64,000 nt of DNA from Nitrososphaerota archaeon (GTDB lineage Archaea; Thermoproteota; Nitrososphaeria_A; Caldarchaeales; Caldarchaeaceae). Both the position numbers and the translations under genes were made by a program. Numbering within the stretch: position 1 is the first letter of the stretch; each line of letters starts with the position of its first letter. The notes beneath the pieces are model-generated. The model was not told where the DNA came from and made no database searches. It was given only the letters and a program-made list of their open reading frames with translations. The stretch spans positions 416,001 to 480,000 of the forward strand of contig JBEPYN010000002.1 of NCBI GenBank assembly GCA_041641305.1, written 5' to 3'. Positions 34,814-51,248 of this stretch are shown piece after piece.

Positions 34814-34997
34814 CTTCTCTGACCTCTTAGCGACCCAAACTCCCCTCCTTTTTTTCCGTGGAGGCTTTCTCCCCCCTTTCGTATTGTCTGTTAGTGTCCG
34901 CCCTCGCGGGCGGAGCCTCCGGTCCCCGAGTCCGGGAGGCTTCCGCCCTTGTGGGGGAGAGGGGCGGAGAAGCCTCCCGGCGGGAGGGGTGAAAGAC

Positions 34998-35135: not shown

Positions 35136-35273
35136 CTGGCTGTGACAGCGCCAGCCAGCCAAAACACCCCTTCTTTTTTTCCTTCATATGCCCATACGCC
35201 TGAAACATGGCGTCCACCCCATAATCATTAAATGGGGTGGCGGGGGTGGTTGGCTGGCTCGCGCCTGGCTCCA

Positions 35274-35557
35274 TGCCCGTGTGCTGGGGCTGCATAGGCC
35301 TTGCCCGTGAGCGGGTCTATGCATCCTGCGCCCTATACACCGGCCACCCCCGCAGGGTCTTGCCCGTGTGCGGGCCCTGTGGTGAGCTTGCCCGTGAGCG
35401 GCTCCGGTGTGTGGGGGGCCTGCTTGCCCGTGTGCGGCGGCTGTCTGCAGGCAGGCGCTTGAGGCGGGTGACAGGGATGTCTCCTGCACCATGTGTTTGC
35501 CGGACTTGCCCGTGAGCGGTCGGCATACATGTGGGGAGCCTTCCTGCCCGTGCGCGG
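35274..35557 (+). repeat. seven dispersed copies of TGCCCGTG(A/T/C)GC(G/T)G
   Basis: Copies at 35274, 35302, 35361, 35389, 35425, 35507 and 35545; related copy near 33922. Confidence 0.85.
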
Positions 35558-36121
35558 TTGGCTCCAGCGGGAGACACCCAAGCAGACGACATACAGACGA
35601 TGTTCAGAGGTTGTTCAGATGCTCCGCCAAGGAAGCTCTCGGAGCCATCTTATCCATGGGAGAGGCATGGTGTCTCTTCCATGGGCTTACTCTATCAAGG
35701 CGCCGTGGGGGTGCTTTGATGGAGAGGCTCCTAGCCCTGTTGGCGGAGACAGGTGACGAATAATGCTTCCGAATATTTCTGACGACATCCCCGAAGATTG
35801 ACACTGGTTCCATGGATTAAGCAGCCGATTCAACAATACCTAGGAGATACAGAGGTTCAAGGTATTCTGATAAGCAGTCGGATGACTCTAGATAACTACA
35901 ATGGTCTCAACAGGTCTCTAATAAACGCCGACAAAAACAGGTCAAAGACTATCAACGATACTTAGCACCTCCCTCGGCGGGCCAACCCCGGGAACAGGGG
36001 CTGGGAGGATGCGGAGACTCTCCCGGGCCGCATAGGCCCGCCTCCCCACAAAAACACGGGGAGGGAAGATGACCCTCCAAATCCTCCAAAAAATCCCCTG
36101 GCTCCCGGGGGTAAGGTCTGG

Positions 36122-36466
36122 ATGGCGACCAGGGACTCCGCGGATGGGCGGGTCCGACCCGTCCGTGGAAACACTGCCCATCGGCCATATGGTGTGGGGG
36201 TGCAGAAGAAGTTGACAAGTAGTCTGCTGGTACCCGGATTGATAGCTCTGGCATTGGTCTATGGGATACAGTTGGTCAACGAGGGGCATCTGTTCGAAGG
36301 TGTTCTGTTGATGGTTGTAGGTATCTTTGGCGGAGTGTATGCTGAATACCTTCTGCAGAGATGGCGCATGAGTTACTGTGACTACTGCGGGGGCAAGATG
36401 AGGAAAGATGTCGGCGGACTATACTACTGCGACAGATGCAGACGCTTCGCTCCTCGACGGGCCTAA
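36122..36466 (+). CDS. small membrane protein with C-terminal Zn ribbon (true start likely near 36193-36199)
   Basis: Two TM helices, then CDYC...CDRC. Confidence 0.65.
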   Translation: MATRDSADGRVRPVRGNTAHRPYGVGVQKKLTSSLLVPGLIALALVYGIQLVNEGHLFEGVLLMVVGIFGGVYAEYLLQRWRMSYCDYCGGKMRKDVGGLYYCDRCRRFAPRRA

Positions 36467-36480
36467 GAGGGCGTGCAGGC

Positions 36481-37944
36481 ATGTGGGCTAGAGTTTTTGT
36501 GACACTGATAATCATCTTTGGCTTCGTAGGGTACGCTTGGTATGCAGCCATGTTAGCCTCTCAGAGATTGTTTGAACGTGGAATCATCAAAGAATCACCT
36601 ATGCCAACAATAGATGTCAAAACAATAACAACACAGGTGGCTCAGTACACAGGCATCGCTGTAACCCTGCTAATGATAGCCATTGTGGTAAAGAGGGTCG
36701 TTGAATCGGGTAGACTTCTGGGCGTCATTAAAGTCTCCGACCTTCAGAGGCATCTACTACTGCTTGGACCAACCGGTAGCGGCAAAACAAACACTGCTAA
36801 ACAGGCGATTGCCTTAGCCGTACGTCGTGGTGTCAGGGTAATCGTCATCGACTGGAAAGCCCTCTTCTCTCCGCCAGCGTTTTTCACGTCTCCCCAGCTC
36901 AGTTCCGCCGCATAGGGTTCGCGTGGAGCTTCTGGCGGAGCTGGGAGGGCCCAGAAAGGCGAGTACGTTAACTTCATCAAGGGAGCCTCCGTCGTCAGGA
37001 AACTCAACGTGTGGGACAACGGTGGTAGGTCGCCGAAGGAATGCGCTGTCCTCGCTGTCGAGACATTGAGAGAAATTACACGCGATATCGCAGATGTTTC
37101 ATCCGCCAGCGCAGCCCTTCTCCTGAGGGAGCTTGTAAAGCTCTACGGGAGAGGGGTGCCGAAGACATCCGACGTAGTTTCAGCTCTTGAGAAGTTCATA
37201 AACACCGCAATGGCGGAGCGGAGACTTGCCGAGGCGAATATGGCTTCTGCATTGCTTAGAAGGATGATGTGGCTCCAGATAGACGAGGAGAGGCCTGCGA
37301 AGAACATCATAGGCTCTGACAGGGTTGTTGTCTACGACTTATCAGAGCTCGGAAGCGTCTACCTGAAAACCATCTACAGCCTCAGCATCCTTTCAAAGAC
37401 CTACTACGGGGCCCTTAGACAGGGACAGTCCCAGAAACTAGAGACGCTGGTGATTGCAGAAGAGTGCCAAAACTACATACGTGGTAGGCGTTTCGACGAG
37501 CCTCCGTCGATTGGTGAGAGAATGGCTAACGAGCTGAGGGCCTACGGCGTCGGCATGGTCCTGATAAGCCCGGACCCTGTCCAGATACCCTGGCACCTCG
37601 CCAGAGACGTTGCAGCAGTAATATCCATAGGACTTCAGGCGATACCCGACAGCGTCAAGGACCTGTTGAGAACAATTGACCCCAAACAGGCGAAGAGAGT
37701 AATGATGGGTAAGAAGGCCTACGTCTATTACAACGGCAAACTGAAGACAGCCTCTCCGCCCAAGCCTCCAAAAGAAATAGAACTAAACGTTGACGTAAAA
37801 GAGGTGATTGAAGAGACTAAGCCTGAGGAGACTGTCGAGACTACTGCTACACAACCAGACAACTCTGGGGCAGAGGAGAGTGTTCAGACAATGCCGATAG
37901 AGCAGAAGGAGCCTTTGGAGGAGGCCCAGAGAGGCGTGAATTGA
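36481..37944 (+). CDS. membrane-anchored HerA/VirB4-like ATPase, spliced: join(36481..36857,36957..37944), 454 aa
   Basis: Walker A LLGPTGSGKT in exon 1; removing the BHB intron gives VIVIDWKGEY; Walker B region VIAEECQN and LRAYGVGMVLIS in exon 2. Confidence 0.85.
36858..36956 (+). other. BHB-type mRNA intron 1 (99 nt)
   Basis: Central helix CUGG/CCAG, bulges AAA/AAA, long inner stem; contains an in-frame TAG. Confidence 0.8.
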
Positions 37945-37990
37945 TAGAGAGCCGGGGAAACCTCCTCTAAGGCTTGAAGAAGATGAAGAG

Positions 37991-38755
37991 ATGGTCGATG
38001 AAGACGAAGAGCAGGTGACAGAGGCCCCGCATGGGCGCATACCCCCACGGGAGGGAGTCCCGCCAAGATGATGTGGTGGTTGTGAGCGCCCCGGGAAAGC
38101 CGAACCACAGACACAACAAGAAAAAGCAGAAGAGGAGCAGGCAGATGAAACCACTGGTGGATTCCCCCTCCACGGCCACATGGTCGTGGAGGAGGCTTTC
38201 GCTGACGAGTCGGTTCTACGATGTGTTAGATGTGGGGCTTCGGCCTCGCTGACAGAGGCTACACAACTCATGGAGAAGCCTTGCCAAGAACCTCGAATGA
38301 CGCAGGATAACCTTCAGACCCGGTGCGGATGTGGACGGCCGGCGACAAAGCTTATGCCGTCATACGACCCGATAACCATGACGTTTAAAGACCTCTGCCT
38401 GTGCGACGGCTGTGCCAACGACTACCTCAACATCCTCAGGAGGTCAGGCCCAGCCCTAGGCAAGATGAGGGGGAGAATACCTGCGAACGGCTATTGGTTC
38501 AACCTTTACAACACCGTCTTCCAGGAGCTGGCTGGGACATACCCGTGCCCAGCCTGCGACCAGTTCTTCGACGACCTGTATTCCGCGGTCAAACACTTCG
38601 GCGAAAAACACATCGACAAGACAAAGACTCCAGAGGAGGTTGTCATAGACGGGGTTCCCGCCCTTAGGACATGGCAATACATATGGTGTACAAAATGTCT
38701 GAGGTTCTTCGAGAACGAGCGACATTTCCGTTCACATCTCCGAGACCATAGGTGA
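37991..38755 (+). CDS. acidic N-terminus plus multiple Zn-finger protein, spliced: join(37991..38031,38098..38755), 232 aa (possible ATT start at 37940)
   Basis: CxxC pairs and C2H2-like CPAC...H....H and CTKC...H...H; the frame is open across the intron except for the intron TGA. Confidence 0.7.
38032..38097 (+). other. BHB-type mRNA intron 2 (66 nt)
   Basis: GGC-CCCG-CAU-GGGCGC pairs with GCGCCC-CGGG-AAA-GCC, a strict helix-bulge-helix-bulge-helix; contains an in-frame TGA. Confidence 0.8.
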
Positions 38756-39120
38756 AGCAGATGAAGTTCAGGGGAAAAATTTACAGGGATGGGGGAAGGC
38801 TGAAGCTGGTCTTTGACAAGCCCCTCCCGCGTGGGAGGGTGACGCTGCTGCTGACGAGGGTGGACGGAAAGGCTATGGAGTTGAAGTTCGATACAATGAT
38901 AACCAACAACGACCCCTATCGATTAAAGTGTCGGTTGCCACCGTTCCCGGAGCTGAGGCCCGGGGCGGTGGTCGAAGGAATAATCGAAGACGAGCTTAGA
39001 TGCCGCTGGTGCGGAGCCAAGTGCTCCGCACTCATCAACAACCTCTGCGACCATTGTTTCGAGGTATTCAACAGCCCCTACAAACCCCCTCTGGGAGAGG
39101 GTTGGGGAAGGCTGACGTAG
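38752..39120 (+). CDS. hypothetical protein with C-terminal Zn finger
   Basis: CRWC...CDHC; GTGA overlap with the upstream gene. Confidence 0.65.
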   Translation: MKQMKFRGKIYRDGGRLKLVFDKPLPRGRVTLLLTRVDGKAMELKFDTMITNNDPYRLKCRLPPFPELRPGAVVEGIIEDELRCRWCGAKCSALINNLCDHCFEVFNSPYKPPLGEGWGRLT

Positions 39121-39285
39121 ACCACCGGCCAAAAACCCCAACCTCCGGGCGGTGACCCGGGGTAAAACCCGGGCGCCCCCGGCTATTTTTTCCAAGGGGC
39201 GTGTCCCGTCGGGAGCTTTCCCGGCGGGGCATGCGCCCCCTTGGCCGGGAGGCTCCCTAAGAGGGCCGCTCCGGAGGTCTAAAAA

Positions 39286-40221
39286 ATGGGCAACAACGAG
39301 AAGTGGACTCTGCCGGTGGTCTATGGAAACCGGAGGGTTCGTAGGGAGCTCATCGAGGTGCTGATGACTGTTGAAGAGTACAACGGATACACGGTGCTTT
39401 ACCTATGGTTCCACTTCCCCTACGACTGGTTTACAGCGCTAAAACCCTATGACTGGGAGCCTGTTGCAATAGCGTTCAAAGACAGCCGACCCGCCAGAAT
39501 CTTCTGGAGACCTCACTGGGCGCTTAGATGCACACGGCCTGTACTTGTGGATAAGAAGACTGTTGTCTTCTACATAAGCCCCATCAAGGGAAACGCTCCG
39601 AGATGCTCCCACTTCGATGTACTGCGGTCCATACTGGAAGACCCGTCGACCTACGGAATACCTTATCGAAAGTTCAAAGAGCTACCGCTGAAAAGCCTTC
39701 TGAAGGATGGGTGGCCGCCCGAGCACGAAGCCCGCGCCGAAAGCTTCAGAGAATACGTTCACCGAGGCCTTGAAGACATAAAAAGATGCGGGGGCGTATA
39801 CAGCGTGGTAATGGGCTTCTTCACAGACCTCCTCAGGGCCTACCTTATGGCTAGGAGGAGAAACCTCGACGGCTTCTACTATTATCTTAAGACGGCATGG
39901 GAAAACACCACAGAGAGGTTCAGGAGGAGCGGACCCGGCTACGAGATGTACAACCTACTCGTCGCCGTCAAGTACCTGCTGATGCTGCAGAAAGCGACTG
40001 GTGAAGGGCCGACGGAGCGGTTCTGGCGGGACATGGAAGGCGACCCTATCCTTCCCCCAGTGGTTAGAGCGTTGACAGGCCACATCTGGTACCCCATAGG
40101 GTTGCTGATAGCAGATGGGTATACGCCAGCCCAGCCGTTCAAAGACTTCGTTGATAAAAAATGGAGACAATGGTTCAGAGACGCCCTCAAAGCCTGCAAT
40201 AAACACGCAAACGAAGCCTAA
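39286..40221 (+). CDS. hypothetical protein
   Basis: 311 aa with a GGAGGT ribosome-binding site; LWFHFPYDW...YDWEPV block of unknown family. Confidence 0.75.
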   Translation: MGNNEKWTLPVVYGNRRVRRELIEVLMTVEEYNGYTVLYLWFHFPYDWFTALKPYDWEPVAIAFKDSRPARIFWRPHWALRCTRPVLVDKKTVVFYISPIKGNAPRCSHFDVLRSILEDPSTYGIPYRKFKELPLKSLLKDGWPPEHEARAESFREYVHRGLEDIKRCGGVYSVVMGFFTDLLRAYLMARRRNLDGFYYYLKTAWENTTERFRRSGPGYEMYNLLVAVKYLLMLQKATGEGPTERFWRDMEGDPILPPVVRALTGHIWYPIGLLIADGYTPAQPFKDFVDKKWRQWFRDALKACNKHANEA

Positions 40222-40590
40222 ACCCCCCACCTTTTTTCCAAGCCACGTGGTCCCGTCTGGGGTTTTTCCCTGGGCGGGGCCATGTGGCTCCGCTCCGGGG
40301 GAGGCTCCATGATGGGTTGCGGCGTCCAACGCCCCTGTGACAGTCCCCGAGGCGTGTGAGCGCGTAGGGGATGAGGGGCGAGGGCCTGGCCGCCTCCTCC
40401 ACGTGGAGGCCGGGGTTTGACCAAGCCCCTTTCCCTCGGGCGCCATGCAGAGGGTTTGGGAGAGGTGTGGCTGAACACCGTGTTCCTATTCCCCTCATCA
40501 GGGAGGGGTGTCGGGGCACGGCTAGTAGGCCATGCTTCCCCAAATTCCTCTGCGTGGTTGTCGGAAAAAGGGGCTGGGGAGGTGATGGAT

Positions 40591-40695
40591 ATGAAAAACT
40601 GGAAGAGGTGTTTAAAATGCGAAGAGTTGAACGACATAAACGCAGCATTCTGCCATTACTGCGGTAGAACGTTAGAAGACGCGGAGGAGGTCTAA
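40591..40695 (+). CDS. small Zn-ribbon protein (34 aa)
   Basis: CLKC...FCHYCG; GGAGGTG ribosome-binding site. Confidence 0.55.
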   Translation: MKNWKRCLKCEELNDINAAFCHYCGRTLEDAEEV

Positions 40696-41001
40696 ATGTA
40701 CCTAGTGAAGCTGCACACGGACCTTCGGGTACAACGACTCGTCTCGCGACCAGTGGAGATATTCTTTGGAGACTTGGTGACGACGATACCGAAGTCGGCT
40801 ATAGTCTGCGATGCATGCAACCAACAGGTCGCAGTCACGGAGCAGGACCTGAAAAACTTAGCGATGGGGTACGCTGTTGTAGACGGGGAATTCATCCTAG
40901 AGGTCGTATGTGAGGAATGCAGACAGCGCTACTTCGACGACATCCCGGTGTTCGACACATTAGAGGATGCCGAGGAGGTCTACGAGAAGAAGGTGAGGTG
41001 A
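40696..41001 (+). CDS. Zn-binding protein, paralog of 41004..41285
   Basis: CDAC...CEEC..R...PVFDTL. Confidence 0.7.
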   Translation: MYLVKLHTDLRVQRLVSRPVEIFFGDLVTTIPKSAIVCDACNQQVAVTEQDLKNLAMGYAVVDGEFILEVVCEECRQRYFDDIPVFDTLEDAEEVYEKKVR

Positions 41002-41003
41002 AG

Positions 41004-41285
41004 ATGGAGTTCCTAGTTTCGCTATTTACTGACAAAGAGCTCTTGAAAAAACTGCTGACCCCAAAGATTGTCATTAATGATTATGGTTACACGATTGTTC
41101 CGGCTAGGCTTGAATGCAGCCACTGTGAGCAGAAACTGCCTGTGAGGGAACCGGGAGGCTTTGCCCTCTTTGACACGGAGGGGACTCTATGGGAACTACT
41201 ATGTGAAGAGTGTAAGCAACGATTCCATTCAGGAACACCGGTTTACGAAACTTTGGACCAAGCTATTCCAAAGCAGAGGTGGTGA
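41004..41285 (+). CDS. Zn-binding protein, paralog of 40696..41001
   Basis: CSHC...CEEC..R...PVYETL; GAGGTG ribosome-binding site. Confidence 0.7.
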   Translation: MEFLVSLFTDKELLKKLLTPKIVINDYGYTIVPARLECSHCEQKLPVREPGGFALFDTEGTLWELLCEECKQRFHSGTPVYETLDQAIPKQRW

Positions 41286-41287
41286 AG

Positions 41288-43088
41288 ATGGTCAGGGTAG
41301 TGGAGCTTCGGGAGGAGACTGAGCTTCTAGAAAAACTCAAGAATCGCTTTCCACACACTAGTCTACGTAGATATCAGGCCGACATCGCTAATAGGGTCTA
41401 CGAGAGCCTTTCCAACGGCTCTAGCATTCTTCTGGAGGGCCCTACGGGGCTGGGGAAGAGGCTATGAGGAGACTGTTTATGGGGGGTGGTTGGCTGGCTG
41501 GCGTCTCCGAGCCTCCTATACAGCCCCTGTATGGGCCGCGGTGAGCGCCTACGCGGAGGAGAAAGGTCTGAGGGTTCTATGGCTCACCCGGACGGCGTCC
41601 CAAGTAGCTCACATCGCCAGCGAGATAGGATGCATGCCCATCTACGGCCGCCGGCTTCTCTGTATCCATGAGACGGTTAGCAAGGTTGAGCAGAGACGGT
41701 TCAACGCGGCTTGTAGAGTTGTACGACTATCCGGACGTTGCTCATACTATCCCGGAAGGCCTAGCCAAATAAAGGCGAAGACTGTTGGAGAGATTAAAGA
41801 TGCCGGTAGGAAGTCGGTCACATGTCCCTACGAGCTTCAGCTGACATCGATGCCATACTCGACGTCGCTGGTCGCCACCCATAAACAGTTGTCTGTAGTT
41901 TCCTGGCTTTTGGCAAAATGGCGTTGGACCCGCGAGCGAACCATCTTGGTGCTCGACGAGTTCCAGAACATCTTGAAGACTGTTCTCGACCTCTCAAAAG
42001 ACGCCATAAGCCTGGCAACGCTCCACAAGGCCGCCGCAGAGGCAGCAAGGTATGGCTTCAGGGATATTTCCAGCAGTCTTTCAGAAGCTTATCAAAGATA
42101 CAAGGCGGTTGACGTTGACGAGGCTGAGGTAGAAAACCTACTGCCCAGCTTCGAAGAGCTCTTCGAGGCGGGGCAGGAGATACAGGCTAGGAAACTTGAG
42201 GAGAATGTTGTACCCGCCAGCTATGTGTTGAGCGTCGCAGACTTTAAGGCTGCTCTCGGCCAGCAGAAGCCCCTCCTAGTCAGGGAGGGTGAACGGGTTT
42301 GGCTGGAGGCGCTAGCAGACCCACGCGAGGAGCTTGAAAAGATTCTCGAAGGCTGGAGAACGGTCATAGCTATGACGGCCACGATGGATGCGGAACTCGT
42401 TGAACGCATGGCTTCAACCCAAGTGACGCTGTTGCGAGCAGGGTGGCCCTTCGACGATAATCTGAAGGCATACATTGTCAGCGGCCTTACGACGAGATAC
42501 AGGGACAGGGATGTGGAGCTCTATGAAGATGTCCGATGGCTTATAGAACAATCTCATGGAATGAGGACTCTCGTCTTCCTACCCAGCTATGAATTTGCTT
42601 CAATGATTCAGAAGAGGCTTAGCGACGCTATCGCCGAGCAACGGGGGATGACGCAGGAACAGGTGGAAGCCACGGCCGCTGAATTCGCGGAGGGTGGAAA
42701 AACGCTTTTAGCCGTCTTCGGTGGAAGGCTGGCAGAGGGCATCAACCTCCAAGCCGACTTGGTTATGCTGGTGGGCATACCATTCGCGAAACCATCACCG
42801 CGAACAAAGAAGCTCGAGGACAAGCTTGAGAATGTCTTTGGGAGCAGTGACCTTTCCCGGCTACATGGACTAGTTTTACCGGCCCTCTTTGCCGCCGTGC
42901 AGGCCGCCGGTAGGGCTGTCAGAGGCCCCAATGATAGGGCTCTGGTCCTGCTCGTCGACGACAGATACCGCCGTTTGACAAAACACTTGCCCAGATGGTT
43001 CAGAGACTTGGTCTCAGATAAGCCGGTCAAGCTCACAGATGTTCCCATTCTATTGGATGAGTGGTTGTCATGGATGAAGAGCGTTTGA
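41288..43088 (+). CDS. XPD/Rad3/DinG-family FeS helicase, spliced: join(41288..41458,41520..43088), 579 aa
   Basis: Q motif RRYQ; Walker A GPTGLGKT is rebuilt only after intron removal; FeS cysteines (LC...C...C...CPY), DEFQN, TAT, EGIN, GIPF and QAAGRAVR. Confidence 0.9.
41459..41519 (+). other. BHB-type mRNA intron 3 (61 nt) containing a kink-turn
   Basis: GGGGCUG-GGGA-AGA-GGC pairs with GCC-UCCU-AUA-CAGCCCC; causes a frameshift and contains a TGA. Confidence 0.9.
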
Positions 43089-44512
43089 GACACGTTCTTG
43101 AACGCATCCGCAGACAGAACATCAACTACGTGAAGCTCAGAGGACTTGTCAGCCGATTCATGACTCTCAACCCCGAGGCAGACCCAGAAGCAATAGATTG
43201 GACAGCCGTCTACGATGACTCCCTAAGCTACGACGAACTCGTCGAAGCATTTGAAAAAGAGTATCCCATGTACCGGTGGCGTGAGACAGCTCCCGCAGAT
43301 GACAAACAAATCGAGGACATGCTGGTGAACCATATCCTCAACCAGGTCGAGGACCTTACAGAAGAGTCTCTCAAGTCGCTCGTCAATGCCTTGGAGGAGC
43401 GGCTGGAGGCTCTACGGCAGGCCGAAACCCCGGCATCTCCGACGGAGCAACAACCCGAACATACACAGATGCAACATCCTCAGCACCAACCGCCGACTAT
43501 GACTGAAAACATACAACAGCCAGCGCCACAGCCGAAGGTAACCCTCAAGCTTCTCGCATCCTACCCCTTCCTAGCGGAGGCTAGGGAGGTGGTTAGGGGC
43601 GTGAGCTTCGAGGGTTTACCCAGGGCGGTATACAAAAGAGCCCGGGAGAGGCTAATGGAGGCTCTCGAACGGGGAGAGCTGGGGGTTGTTCCCCGGCTCG
43701 ATGAACCGTTCGTGGAGCTTCTCTCCTTTCCCGTGGCGAAGGCCGTTGTCCACACAATCGACGACGACTGGCTGAAAAGGCGATGGGCCCTCGCAGAGTC
43801 AGCGAGGGTCGAGAGGCTTCTACTGAAGGAGAATGCGGATGTCTCAGAATGGCTCCTCTCCCGGCTACTTGAGGTCAGGCGAGAGGGAGAGGAGTATGCG
43901 CTGAGGTTCACTGATTACCTAAAGCTTGCTGAAGGCCTTACCACCGATATCTCATGGAAGCTAGTAAACCAAAAACTGCATCGAGGCTGGGTCTTCATAA
44001 CAAAGACTCGTCTCATACGACTCATCAGACAAAAACTCTACCAACTTCTCTATAACAGCTTCCAGCAGACGCCCAAACTGACAAAAATACCTCAACAAAT
44101 CGCCGAAATGGTCGCCGACATAACCGAGGAGCTCCAAAAAATCAAAGCCCGGGCAGGACGGGTCACACCCGTCAAAGGCGCAATACCGCCCTGTATGAAG
44201 ACGATTAGCGATAGGCTGGCGGACGCCAGCCACACAGAGAACTTCGTATACGCCGCCTACTTGGTCAATACGGGATACAGCATCGAGGAAATCGTTGATG
44301 TCTTTAGGAAGAGAGCTGACTTCGACGAGAGGATAGCACGGTATCAGATAGAGCATATAGCGGGGCTGAGGGGGAGCCGTGTGAAATACCGGCCACCTTC
44401 ATGCTCCCGCATGCGGGAACTCGGACTATGCATCGAGAACGGAAGACTATGCCCACCGAATATCCACAACCCACTACAATACCGACCTAGACAACAGCGA
44501 CAACCCACCTAA
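43061..44512 (+). CDS. priL: DNA primase large subunit (PriL) with N-terminal extension
   Basis: YPFL..A, RRWALAES, WKLVNQ.L..GWV, PPCM, DFDERIARYQIEHIAG and YRPPSC...GLC....C. Confidence 0.85.
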   Translation: MVVMDEERLRHVLERIRRQNINYVKLRGLVSRFMTLNPEADPEAIDWTAVYDDSLSYDELVEAFEKEYPMYRWRETAPADDKQIEDMLVNHILNQVEDLTEESLKSLVNALEERLEALRQAETPASPTEQQPEHTQMQHPQHQPPTMTENIQQPAPQPKVTLKLLASYPFLAEAREVVRGVSFEGLPRAVYKRARERLMEALERGELGVVPRLDEPFVELLSFPVAKAVVHTIDDDWLKRRWALAESARVERLLLKENADVSEWLLSRLLEVRREGEEYALRFTDYLKLAEGLTTDISWKLVNQKLHRGWVFITKTRLIRLIRQKLYQLLYNSFQQTPKLTKIPQQIAEMVADITEELQKIKARAGRVTPVKGAIPPCMKTISDRLADASHTENFVYAAYLVNTGYSIEEIVDVFRKRADFDERIARYQIEHIAGLRGSRVKYRPPSCSRMRELGLCIENGRLCPPNIHNPLQYRPRQQRQPT

Positions 44513-44667
44513 ACACCCCCTATTTTTTCTTTCCCCGATAGGAGGCCCTTTCCGCCGCTCTCCGGCGGGAGGGGTTCCTCCTGTCGGGGAGAGGTGGACT
44601 CAGGCCTCCCGGGAAAGCCATGACATTAAGTCATGGTACCGGACCCGGCCACCGGGGTAAAGGTGGC

Positions 44668-45066
44668 ATGGACTCGTCTCCCGAGAGGCTGTTTGATGAC
44701 TCGGGAGCGCCCGCGGTTCCAAGGCCCGCCGCGGGCGACAAGTGCCAGGGCCTGAGTTCGGGGGGTGGTTCGACTTATGAGCGTCTGCTGGAGCGCTACG
44801 GCGGCTTCTTCGAGGAGCTTGGCTATGGTTGTCTCGCCAGCTTTAAGCATCTGATTGAGCAAGTGGAGGTGACTATCGATACGGCGACATCTAATGATGT
44901 CAACCTGTTTGCTAAGCTCCATGTGCTAAAGTCTGCGAGGGCCTCGGTAGAAGTATTTACGGAGTATTATAGTCGATTCCTGCCACCTACTGTCGTCAAT
45001 AACCTGCGAGCTGACCTGACATTTCTGCTTGAGCGTGCTGAGGAGGTGGTGTTGACTTTTGGCTGA
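44668..45066 (+). CDS. hypothetical helical protein (start uncertain)
   Basis: Protein-like from about 44770 (TYERLLERYGGFFEELGY...); the upstream part lies in a hairpin cassette. Confidence 0.5.
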   Translation: MDSSPERLFDDSGAPAVPRPAAGDKCQGLSSGGGSTYERLLERYGGFFEELGYGCLASFKHLIEQVEVTIDTATSNDVNLFAKLHVLKSARASVEVFTEYYSRFLPPTVVNNLRADLTFLLERAEEVVLTFG

Positions 45067-45970
45067 ATTCATAGACCCCACCATTCTGAAAGGGTGGTGG
45101 GGTTCCGAGGAATACCAGAGGCTGTTATCCTTCGAGCCGGAAAATGCAGGTGACTACTATCGGTTACCATTCGCCAAATACAACGAGCTCTTTCCGTTCA
45201 TCAAAGTCAAGATTGAGCACCCTGCAGTGATGAACCCATACTTGGCGATTTTCCTTTGGCGGCGTTACGTAAAACCAAATGATGTAATAATCGACCCTAT
45301 GGCTGGGATAGGGGGTACACCCGATATGTAGGGGCCCAGCTTTATCCCAGCCATAGCCTGCAGATTGACCAATGATAACCACTTAATCCTCAACGATATT
45401 GAGTCGACTTACGCCAGACTCTCTGAGGAGCTTCTTTCGGAGATGCTGGTCGTTACTAATCACAGCACCCTGCTGGACGTCTACAACGTAAACGCTGCCT
45501 CTCTTTATGAACTTCTTAGACCAAGAGGACTTGCTGGAGGCGTACGGAGGAGGGTTATTATTACCTCTCCTCCGTATGGCCTCCTCAGGCCCTGTGATAG
45601 CTTCAGCCCGAGGTTTGGCAGACTGACGGTAACTTCCGCCGGTAACCTTAGCGTGATAACCGGTAAACACTTTAGGGCGGCTTGGCTGGGCGTGCTGACT
45701 TCGATGTATCTCTGTCTCAACCAGTTCCATAGAAACCGTGACTTGGCTGTGATTGTCCTCAAAAACTTCAAGAATAACAATGTGGAAAAGGCTGTTGGAA
45801 AAAACCTCGTCAATTTAACGGTTGAACTCGCGGAGTTCGTTGGATTCAAACATCTCGAGACGCTGAAGTTCAAGATTTCAGGCAGCCACTTCGCCAGATA
45901 CCACGACATCAAGCAACATGTCCATGACCTCTGGCACGAATATGCGCTGGTCTTCCGCAAGGTGGTGTAG
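45059..45970 (+). CDS. amino (N4-C/N6-A) DNA methyltransferase, spliced: join(45059..45318,45340..45970), 296 aa
   Basis: HPAVM, motif I IIDPMAGIGGTF (rebuilt by splicing), NDIE, motif IV ITSPPY and HEYALVFRK. Confidence 0.85.
45319..45339 (+). other. BHB-type mRNA intron 4 (21 nt)
   Basis: 14-bp perfect exon-exon stem CUAUGGCUGGGAUA/UAUCCCAGCCAUAG plus two G-U pairs, helix GGGU/GCCC, bulges ACA/AGC; contains an in-frame TAG. Confidence 0.9.
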
Positions 45971-46819
45971 ATGAGGATTTTCGCTGATGTTCATAGGAAA
46001 AAGGATGACAGCGGCTACCGCATCACATATACAACTGACGGCGAAGTCTTTAAACACGTTGATTCTCCGATGGACATCCCCGCGCAGGCAGGAGACGAGG
46101 TATTCGTTGACACTATACCGATAATCCACACCGACGCATTCATAGAGCTACTGAGGAGAGGTGTAGAGGTCTATTATCTACGAAGACTCTCACTTATTGA
46201 AAAGACAAGACAGAGACTGGGGATACCGAAGTCAGCCAAAAATGACGTAAAAATTCTGATGAACATTGAGAAGAAATGGTTCAAGAGAGTTGACGAGGAC
46301 TTCTTGAGCATGCGTCAGATTATTTCGGCGTTTAGGAGATTGGATAGAGACAAACAGAGGTTGGAGAACCAGTCTAAGGACGTGCCGGAGATTACAAAGG
46401 AAAGCTTCAGGAGGCTCATAGACCATACAGAGGAGGAGAAGTTGGTAATAGCCAAACCAATAGTAGAAGAAGCAGAGAAGAGGCTTTCGTTATTTAGAGT
46501 AGTAGCGCAGGAGCTGGGTGTTGCAGACGATAATCATTCGATGGGAAGAGAGGCACTGGCCGAACTACTGACATACGTAGACTTCAGCAAATCCTTCAGA
46601 AAAGTCAGAGAGTATCTCGGACTCTTCAGAAACCCGAAGACCAAAAACATGAGATACAGCCACAGTTCTAGGAAGGCGTTGAACCGTCTAACAATGTCGC
46701 TGACGGGCAGAGAGCCAAAAGCAGAAGACGAGGAAACAATAGCTTTCAAGATATGGCTGACGTTCCGACGGGAAAACCAAAAGAGGCTGGCGGGCATACC
46801 GGCCCAACAACAGGGATAA
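45971..46819 (+). CDS. short IS110-related protein (RuvC-like DEDD domain, coiled coil, Nop/Tnp-like C-terminus)
   Basis: IFADVH (D6), VFVDT (D47), KSAKND in place of KTDxxD, LRQ-like MRQ...R.L......LEN coiled coil, and FRKVREYLGL. No serine loop seen after YLGL. Confidence 0.65.
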   Translation: MRIFADVHRKKDDSGYRITYTTDGEVFKHVDSPMDIPAQAGDEVFVDTIPIIHTDAFIELLRRGVEVYYLRRLSLIEKTRQRLGIPKSAKNDVKILMNIEKKWFKRVDEDFLSMRQIISAFRRLDRDKQRLENQSKDVPEITKESFRRLIDHTEEEKLVIAKPIVEEAEKRLSLFRVVAQELGVADDNHSMGREALAELLTYVDFSKSFRKVREYLGLFRNPKTKNMRYSHSSRKALNRLTMSLTGREPKAEDEETIAFKIWLTFRRENQKRLAGIPAQQQG

Positions 46820-46910: not shown

Positions 46911-47017
46911 CCTAGGTGTTGTTTGGTGGTTGCCTGCCAGCCAACCATCCCCCTATTTTTCCCTTCTTTTTGTGATGTTTTTTGTTTATATCATGGGTGT
47001 GGGGTGTTTTCGGGGGT

Positions 47018-47460
47018 ATGGTCTCTGAGCTTGGTTATGGTGGGTTTGTTGCGGAGGTGTTGAGTGGGCTTGGTGTGGGGTTGGGTGATGAGGTTGAGGT
47101 TGTGAGAAATGGGCTGCGGCTCCGCGGGTTTGTGATTGCGCGTTACGAGTATGGGGCGCCTGATGTTCTGGTTTTGAAGCTTTCGAACGGCTACAACATA
47201 GGTGTGCGCATCGATGCCTCTACACAGATACGTAAGCTCTCCTCAGCCGTCGCGCCATCTTTCAACCCACCTCCACCCGCCCAGCCTCGGGAAAACCTGC
47301 CCCGCGTCATGATTGCCAACACAGGCGGCACCATAGCCAGCAGAATAGACTACAGGACAGGAGGAGTTAAACCCACTCTCACTGCATCGGACCTCGTCAG
47401 CATAGTTCCCGAAATCGCGGAGAAAGCAAACGTCTCAACCGAGATTCTGATGCAGGTTGT
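47018..47460 (+). pseudogene. gatD: truncated Glu-tRNA(Gln) amidotransferase subunit D (N-terminal part)
   Basis: VLKLSNGYNIGV and TGGTIASRIDYRTGGV...DL...VPEI; similarity stops at about 47458. Confidence 0.8.
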
Positions 47461-47490
47461 GAGTATGTTTATAACATCATCCAACACAGC

Positions 47491-48417
47491 GTGTCCATGG
47501 TTGTTTTCTTTGGAGCAGTCATTCCACGCTATGACGTGGATTTTAGAAAAGTTGTGGACACGGTTTTGATGTTTGAGGAGCTTGGTTTTTCCTCGCTCTG
47601 GGTAACTGACCACATGCAGCCCCGCCGCGCCTCACGCATCCTCGAGTCATGGACGCTTCTCTCAGCGCTTGCGCCTGTGACGGATGCGAGACTGGGAACG
47701 GTTGTCCTATGCTCATGCTACCGCCACCCCTCTCTTCTCGCGAAAATGGCCGCAACCCTCGACATCATCAGCAACGGACGCCTCGAGCTCGGCGTTGGAA
47801 CAGGGTCGGAGCCACAGGCCGAGGAGCTAGAGGCCCTTGGAATGGAGACATGGAAGCCCAAAGAAAGAATTCCACGTCTGCGAGAATATGTTGAGGTGCT
47901 GCGGCTGCTGCTTTCCGACGGCGACCCCGCCACCTACCAAGGCAGGTTCTACACGCTCAAAAAAGCGATGCGCAACACGCCCACGGTCCAGAAACCACAT
48001 CCACCCATATGGATAGGTGCGCGAAAAGGGAAAATGGTTAAGCTGGCGGCCGAGATAGGCGATGGCTGGAACTTCTACGGCGAAACACTGACAGAATACA
48101 GAGAGGCCGTCAAACATTTTGACGAAGAATGCGACAAGCTAGGCAGAAGACCGAGCAAAGCAATCTTCACAAACCTCCTAATCTACAAGGATGAAACGGA
48201 CAAGAGGGAGAAGATAAAGCACCTCGGCGCCTTCGAAACCGAGGAACAAGCCCTGCGCAAAACCTTTACACTCCTACACGGAACCCCTGACCAAGTCATC
48301 AAACAGGTTGAGGAGCTACAGAGTCTCGGCGTCGGACTCGTCATCCTACGAGACATGGACCCAGAAACATCAAGCATAAAAGACTTCGCCAAAGAAATCA
48401 TCCCATCCTTCAAATGA
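47491..48417 (+). CDS. LLM-class flavin/F420-dependent oxidoreductase
   Basis: GFSSLWVTDH, ESWTLLSALA, RHPSLLAKMAATLDIISNGRLELGVG and PPIWIG. Confidence 0.9.
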   Translation: MSMVVFFGAVIPRYDVDFRKVVDTVLMFEELGFSSLWVTDHMQPRRASRILESWTLLSALAPVTDARLGTVVLCSCYRHPSLLAKMAATLDIISNGRLELGVGTGSEPQAEELEALGMETWKPKERIPRLREYVEVLRLLLSDGDPATYQGRFYTLKKAMRNTPTVQKPHPPIWIGARKGKMVKLAAEIGDGWNFYGETLTEYREAVKHFDEECDKLGRRPSKAIFTNLLIYKDETDKREKIKHLGAFETEEQALRKTFTLLHGTPDQVIKQVEELQSLGVGLVILRDMDPETSSIKDFAKEIIPSFK

Positions 48418-51143: not shown

Positions 51144-51248
51144 GGGCCCGTAGCTTAGCATGGATAGAGCGCTGGCCTCCGGAGCCAGAGGTCGTGAGCG
51201 GCGGTACGGAAGTGCCGCGCCGGCAGGGTTCAAATCCCACCGGGCCCG
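51144..51248 (+). tRNA. tRNA-Arg(CCG) with a 30-nt intron (51197..51226) in the T-stem
   Basis: Acceptor GGGCCCG/CGGGCCC, anticodon stem CTGGC-CTCCGGA-GCCAG, T-arm GTG|GG-TTCAAAT-CCCAC; BHB helix GUCG/CGGC with bulges UGA/AGG; TTTAAATA box upstream. Confidence 0.95.

Follow-up and report, generated by a model that had tools for sequence, protein, structure and literature searches.

As of 2020, cbf5 was the only archaeal gene in which splicing of an intron with bulge-helix-bulge (BHB) structure from coding sequence had been described, with HVO_1309 as a case in a 5′ untranslated region (UTR) (PMC7714728); other introns in archaeal protein genes were predicted only (PMC2738675). The crenarchaeal cbf5 intron (Watanabe 2002; Yokobori 2009, PMC2738675) is a short insert at a catalytic motif, with a BHB or relaxed BHB boundary that is cut after the second base of the bulge; it occurs in hosts with a hetero-oligomeric EndA endonuclease, and has a variable interior and a history of both gain and loss among relatives. 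Here we describe an operon with introns that share these traits, carried by a mobile element in a hot-spring member of the Caldarchaeales (Nitrososphaerota archaeon, assembly GCA_041641305.1) within a window of 64,000 nucleotides, by which we mean the whole stretch of DNA analysed (contig JBEPYN010000002.1; C2:416001-480000). Unlike cbf5, the case has five or more introns spread over four genes of one mobile-element operon, with up to three in a single gene, the element family uses eight distinct sites with inserts of up to 123 nt, and the lineage is one that the 2009 survey of cbf5 introns left uncovered (PMC2738675).

The HVO_1309 intron of Haloferax volcanii (Schwarz 2020, PMC7714728) is likewise an mRNA BHB processed by EndA and resembles two non-coding elements of our locus (beginning at 44540 and 34931), but it is single, chromosomal and outside coding sequence. 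The putative 12-bp introns of the rudivirus SIRV1 (Peng 2004, cited in PMC2738675) also sit in the manner of introns within the protein genes of a mobile archaeal genome; as far as the citing paper describes them they are in-frame and their splicing is undemonstrated, whereas the inserts described here introduce stops or frameshifts and show RNA signals of excision. A 1.8-kb recombinase element of Caldiarchaeum subterraneum, located at tRNA-Thr and present in six copies, has been linked to the gain of tRNA introns (Sugahara 2012, PMC3293823). We found no report of multi-intron operons, or of mobile-element mRNA introns with RNA support, in a literature search that subscription journals lay outside. 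The introns belong to the BHB class; it is their setting in a mobile-element operon and their density that are new. Together with the intron-bearing and intron-less alleles of close relatives and the RNA signals, they indicate that in Caldarchaeales the tRNA machinery routinely splices mRNA, and that mobile-element genes which are in fact intact are being filed as fragments. They also supply short assayable substrates and a natural allele series for the long-open question of how archaea gain and lose BHB introns.

Introns in the coding sequences

The original prediction, made from the sequence of the window, named four inserts on one strand, in genes for a HerA-like ATPase, a Zn-finger protein, an XPD-like helicase and a DNA methyltransferase. 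All four are present (introns 1 to 4; Table 1); in each, all 4 bp of the central helix are paired, the bulges measure 3 nt and there is an inner stem. An outer exon helix accompanies introns 2, 3 and 4; there is none adjacent to intron 1, which is therefore a relaxed BHB motif, the relaxation being on its 3′ side. Excision by the EndA rule, by which each bulge is cut behind its second base, reopens the frame in every case to give stop-free products of 469, 232, 582 and 296 aa; if unspliced, the frames are blocked by an in-frame TAG (introns 1 and 4), an in-frame TGA (intron 2) or a frameshift (intron 3). The motifs expected at the junctions are rebuilt: HerA DWK/GEY (the slash marking the insertion point) and the XPD Walker A motif match intron-less homologs, and methyltransferase motif I is restored as GIGG/T. 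The four inserts have no meaningful sequence in common, as had been claimed, and no copies of them were found in the rest of the genome; intron 3 shares a G-rich match of 25 nt with 35242-35266, which chance may explain.

BHB geometry alone is weak evidence, a scan for joinable open reading frames (ORFs) giving chance candidates by the dozen within the window and 98 across the genome. The inserts stand above chance because homology fixes their position and length independently of the BHB, and at a fixed site a paired helix with an inner stem is expected with a chance of 0.003 and a strong motif with 2-5e-5. De novo BHB and ORF-joining scans of the window and the genome were rejected as a census, chance joins of neighbouring genes dominating their output, and after filtering they missed the two chromosomal introns described below. 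Two alternative motifs in the Zn-finger region were also rejected: a 33-nt BHB at 38212-38244, whose excision would take out an in-frame CxxC motif, and one at 38079-38181, whose register differs from that conserved in relatives.

The four inserts are real, but the list was incomplete, lacking a fifth intron, a decayed sixth and two non-coding BHB elements. Intron 5 (39082-39109), which was found through RNA, is by far the strongest 28-nt BHB within 38448-39124, and its 29-nt counterpart in the related locus L157 gives an identical spliced C-terminus. The decayed copy (intron 1b, 37932-37959) has two of the four pairs of a central helix, whose counterpart in L157 is a flawless BHB of 33 nt; excision in the window would fuse HerA to the Zn-finger domain. 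The two are fused without an intron in G011, a genome from the same genus as that of the window (G000), and in L030, L004, L005, G020 and L157 they are connected across a linker that carries one intron or two, with intron 2 having counterparts of 64 and 70 nt in L030 and L157. In relatives, then, the Zn-finger ORF, originally taken as a separate gene, forms the C-terminal portion of HerA, and its split in the window looks like a case of gene fission by intron decay. An ATG at 37991 in the linker, not found in L157, could begin the Zn-finger part separately, and a further in-frame ATG lies upstream of HerA exon 1 at 36436.

The methyltransferase has the motifs of a class I S-adenosylmethionine (SAM)-dependent amino-methyltransferase and is predicted to be one on motif and weak fold evidence; this much of the original assignment stands, DNA being a candidate substrate only. 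Set beside the N4C/N6A DNA methyltransferases, it has motif I and SPPY; its Pfam matches are weak (E ∼0.006) and are to RNA as well as DNA families, no PDB sequence match was found, and a low-confidence structural model (pLDDT 54) resembles many SAM enzymes, none at E<=0.001. Its homologs in the protein database are exon-2 halves only, of 168-200 aa, which bears out the expectation that annotation splits such genes.

Comparison among relatives

Across the element family there are about 25 alleles at eight sites, with inserts of 18-123 nt in all three reading phases. In almost all alleles the central helix lies in the register demanded by homology, with compensatory changes (GGGA/UCCU vs GGCA/UGCC; GGGU/GCCC vs GGGA/UCCC); the boundary structure is conserved and the intron interiors are unalignable. 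Spliced HerA and XPD products align seamlessly with intron-less homologs, their motifs being identical. In the majority of intron-bearing alleles the exon flanks pair with each other more strongly than do synonymous shuffles; a few intron-less alleles behave likewise, which is what a recent loss, or a target that was there beforehand, would produce. In comparison with L157, nonsynonymous differences per site (pN) are far below synonymous ones (pS) in every exon, including methyltransferase exon 1, and dN/dS is 0.06 in HerA exon 2, reflecting purifying selection on both sides of each insert.

The sites are occupied unevenly. At DWK/GEY eight HerA homologs are insert-free, including L157 with 90% protein identity, and three others have differing inserts of 83, 117 and 123 nt in the same register. 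XPD has no insert at its Walker A site in G020, G032 and G011 and one of 68-88 nt in four relatives, and two further helicase sites are used in relatives, one in motif VI (20 and 25 nt) and one close to the C-terminus (83 nt). Every methyltransferase allele found has its interruption in the same codon, with 18-25-nt inserts in seven relatives. Intron presence is patchy on both gene trees, which leave gain versus loss undecided, and sister elements in the same genus and order are missing individual introns or every one tested, with G011 having none at the tested sites. We also note that the XPD homolog of G011 (L011 ∼1500) has a frameshift without a BHB, either a sequencing error or a mutation.

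The host genome (1.66 Mb, 99% complete) encodes two EndA subunits of about 180 aa each as well as RtcB, and hetero-oligomeric EndA has been reported to cut relaxed motifs outside tRNA (PMC2738675). The RtcB gene (G000 C1:535991-538729) is a 975-aa frame in two pieces, probably owing to an intein. Further BHB-interrupted coding sequences are present in the chromosome: cbf5 (G000 C1 ∼76,810) has a 14-nt intron in the catalytic Asp codon, likewise in G011, and a second gene has a 27-nt intron near its start (G000 C1:429820), also in G011. The latter gene presumably resembles those for cyclic 2,3-diphosphoglycerate synthetase-type GTPases. A comparison of split genes between G000 and G011 recovered the XPD intron alone; introns common to both genomes escape such a comparison, the distant HerA was overlooked, and the chromosomal count of two is therefore a minimum.

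Evidence from RNA and DNA contigs

The stretch is contained in 20 runs from 11 studies. DNA contigs of X2 and X11, two other samples, cross the inserts gap-free, and the inserts are therefore no assembly artefact. Signals in the RNA contigs of metatranscriptome run X16 cover four introns (1, 2, 3 and 5). For the helicase, a contig of depth 10.3 matches as far as 41458 with 158 letters remaining, and a piece of equal depth begins at 41520; a contig across 38448-39124 is short by exactly the 28 nt of intron 5; and a third contig begins to match at 36954, the 17 letters ahead of that point being foreign, which is the pattern expected of a spliced HerA message. The pieces for HerA and XPD exon 1 have no differences from the window strain, the DNA contigs of which carry the inserts. 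At the level of contigs, this one run points to spliced RNA in vivo for introns 3 and 5 and probably for intron 1. The same run has a back-joint leading to exactly 38032 through letters that vary from the 3′ end of intron 2, and another from 41518 with letters identical to the last base and first 30 bases of the L157 helicase intron. Both are intron circles whose ends meet where predicted; they stem from variants of introns 2 and 3.

Interpretation

We have little doubt that splicing is real, and the dependence on host EndA and RtcB proposed originally is well supported by homologs, covariation and RNA contigs. The inserts are probably EndA-type mRNA introns, most likely tolerated insertions, that have been gained, lost and left to decay repeatedly. 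We favor tolerance because the trees are patchy, a 90%-identical sister is intron-less, sites differ, the helicase alone has three of them, the interiors are unrelated and one copy is decaying, and because intron 5 changes a few terminal residues only. In such a process the operon transcript would fold into a BHB or relaxed BHB at each site, the two-subunit host EndA would cut after the second base of each bulge, and RtcB would join the exons, with the intron released and closed into a circle. At catalytic motifs (Walker A, helicase motif VI and methyltransferase motif I) inserts would stay in place, since nothing short of exact loss is viable at these points; an intron once present would lock in selection for the exon helix, and any control of expression would be a side effect. 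Other intron classes fit poorly: there is no LAGLIDADG homing-endonuclease ORF, every allele found being 18-123 nt with no large insert among the family loci examined or in viral contigs (which yielded no relatives), and no group I or group II ribozyme core, the inserts being 21-99 nt with no Rfam intron match.

Several points weigh against this interpretation. The RNA evidence consists of assembled contigs from one run of one study, the spliced joints are deduced from the coordinates of contig pieces among the matches listed, DNA carry-over and intron-less alleles in that sample are uncontrolled, and both circles derive from strain variants other than the window's exact alleles. EndA and RtcB are the presumed enzymes, and the full-length proteins the presumed products. 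No intron-less methyltransferase allele was found among the relatives, and the methyltransferase junction has no RNA cover among the X16 matches listed, although the hole in question (45273-45378) carries no weight either way. Finally, with six introns in coding sequence within 9 kb as against at least two on a 1.6-Mb chromosome, and none seen in the conjugation genes, the clustering is unexplained by neutrality alone.

This clustering also speaks for the view that splicing is selected as a control layer, tying helicase, ATPase and methyltransferase output to host EndA through growth state, temperature or host type, or that the circles are functional RNAs. The conserved non-coding BHB elements in the same operon, the interruption of every methyltransferase allele found and the block that each window intron, if unspliced, places on full-length protein agree with it; close sister elements nevertheless have intron-less alleles, the intron sequences share nothing and occupy different sites in different elements, and intron 5 affects only a few terminal residues, and we think such control unlikely. 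To our knowledge all archaea carry EndA, and a host check would therefore be weak. The roles of switch, host-range check or toxicity safeguard suggested in the original prediction are unsupported, given the intron-less sisters, the patchy trees and the chromosomal introns of the host.

A more elaborate proposal, to which we give rather little credence, is that the element's own IS110-like RNA-guided recombinase seeds BHB introns in conserved motifs of its cargo genes (and in tRNA genes), the element then controlling its proteins through host tRNA splicing, including variable joining in the three-intron HerA-Zn-finger gene; if true, this would be an archaeal mobile system that generates introns and is regulated by splicing. 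For tolerated insertions, too, the terminal IS110-like recombinase may speculatively be considered a candidate agent of intron gain. Its ORF (45971) is multi-copy in Caldarchaeum, with five matches in G000 and nine in G011, one of the latter, 53% identical, adjoining tRNA-Thr, and by place and number it may correspond to the element of Sugahara (2012, PMC3293823), a lead only; that study concerns tRNA introns.

It is very improbable that the genes are pseudogenes broken by hairpin insertions resembling miniature inverted-repeat transposable elements (MITEs), with the joined RNA forms derived from intron-less DNA alleles. Decayed copies of the element do occur elsewhere (the methyltransferase copies of G027 carry stops), intron-less alleles exist in nature and RNA libraries can contain DNA; against this, both flanks of each insert are under purifying selection, the BHB register is retained across unrelated inserts, the circles close at the predicted ends, and the RNA pieces of HerA and XPD exon 1 belong to the strain whose DNA contigs hold the inserts. 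Recoding by read-through, frameshifting or ribosome hopping over the hairpin hardly merits consideration, for while the lengths of three among the four inserts are divisible by three and split archaeal genes have earlier been confused with frameshifting (PMC2738675), orthologous inserts occur in all three phases (83/99/117/123; 64/66/70; 18-25 nt), lie within catalytic motifs and give RNA signals of excision.

The operon and its surroundings

Table 1. Features of the interrupted operon and adjoining elements (window coordinates).
Feature	Coordinates	Strand	Remarks
Second non-coding BHB-bounded element, 56 nt	34931..34986	+	12-bp inner stem; sequence related to 44540-44615
Exon 1, HerA/VirB4-like ATPase-Zn-finger gene	36481..36857	+	Membrane anchor, Walker A; Pfam DUF87 E=8e-8, homolog alignments
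Intron 1, 99 nt	36858..36956	+	Relaxed BHB inside DWK/GEY; helix CUGG/CCAG, 8-bp inner stem
HerA exon 2	36957..37931	+	Unspliced frame stops at 37944
Intron 1b, decayed, 28 nt	37932..37959	+	Two mismatches in central helix; two stop codons
Acidic linker exon	37960..38031	+	Between introns 1b and 2
Intron 2, 66 nt	38032..38097	+	Strict BHB; helix CCCG/CGGG, 3-bp outer helix
Zn-finger exon	38098..38755	+	C-terminal domain of HerA protein in relatives; weak C2H2/Zn-ribbon matches
Small Zn-ribbon gene	38752..39115	+	Last codons only altered by splicing
Intron 5, 28 nt	39082..39109	+	New; strict BHB; helix CCCU/GGGG
XPD/DinG-like helicase exon 1	41279..41458	+	Closes with Walker A GLGK; homolog alignment
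Intron 3, 61 nt	41459..41519	+	Strict BHB, splits Walker A K/T; GGGA/UCCU, 7-bp outer helix
Helicase exon 2	41520..43088	+	DEAD_2, Helicase_C_2
PriL-like primase large subunit	43061..44512	+	Uninterrupted
Structured non-coding element, 76 nt	44540..44615	+	Strictly BHB-bounded; conserved in six related loci
SAM-dependent methyltransferase exon 1	45059..45318	+	Weak Pfam matches
Intron 4, 21 nt	45319..45339	+	Strict BHB in motif I (GIGG/T); 16-bp exon-encoded outer helix
Methyltransferase exon 2	45340..45970	+	SPPY motif
IS110-like putative recombinase	45971..46819	+	Ends operon; matches to Transposase_20/DEDD_Tnp_IS110 clusters, lead only

The operon is part of an accessory island, roughly 84 kb in size, whose right end is near window position 46,980, where synteny with G011 restarts. 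The cargo includes VirB4/coupling-protein-like ATPases, ParB and a restriction-modification gene, and the island therefore has the look of a conjugative element that has integrated; a search for an attachment-site repeat of the island found none. The interrupted genes are all on one strand between 36.1 and 46.8 kb, the IS110-like ORF being the last. The segment 33600-46980 may be a transposon-like sub-unit, and its left-end sequence and terminal IS110-like ORF recur elsewhere as short deletion derivatives; many methyltransferase-plus-recombinase copies are present in G027.

The two non-coding BHB elements flank or interrupt the operon, and neither has an Rfam family. That at 44540-44615 is a candidate leader intron or excised circular RNA. 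A repetitive, highly structured non-coding region at 35243-35975 has RNA contigs of very great depth (reaching 1561 in X20), and related copies adjoin IS110-like ORFs at C1:441 kb and C1:517 kb and at 19-20 kb in G011; it is a candidate guide or bridge-type RNA, or an element end. Long GC-rich intergenic hairpins lie behind C-run/T-run motifs at 39120-39290 and 40221-40590, with no Rfam match. The PriL-like primase has an additional N-terminal domain, and no PriS partner was seen in the operon. A sigma-70 promoter scan was set aside, the model not being meaningful for archaea.

At the right edge of the island, 46982-47569 contains a partial copy of a gatD/asparaginase-like gene, of which fuller copies are present elsewhere in the genome. 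Further to the right, at 51144-51248, is an intron-containing tRNA-Arg gene that the default tRNA tool missed and that was recovered by an intron search and Rfam.

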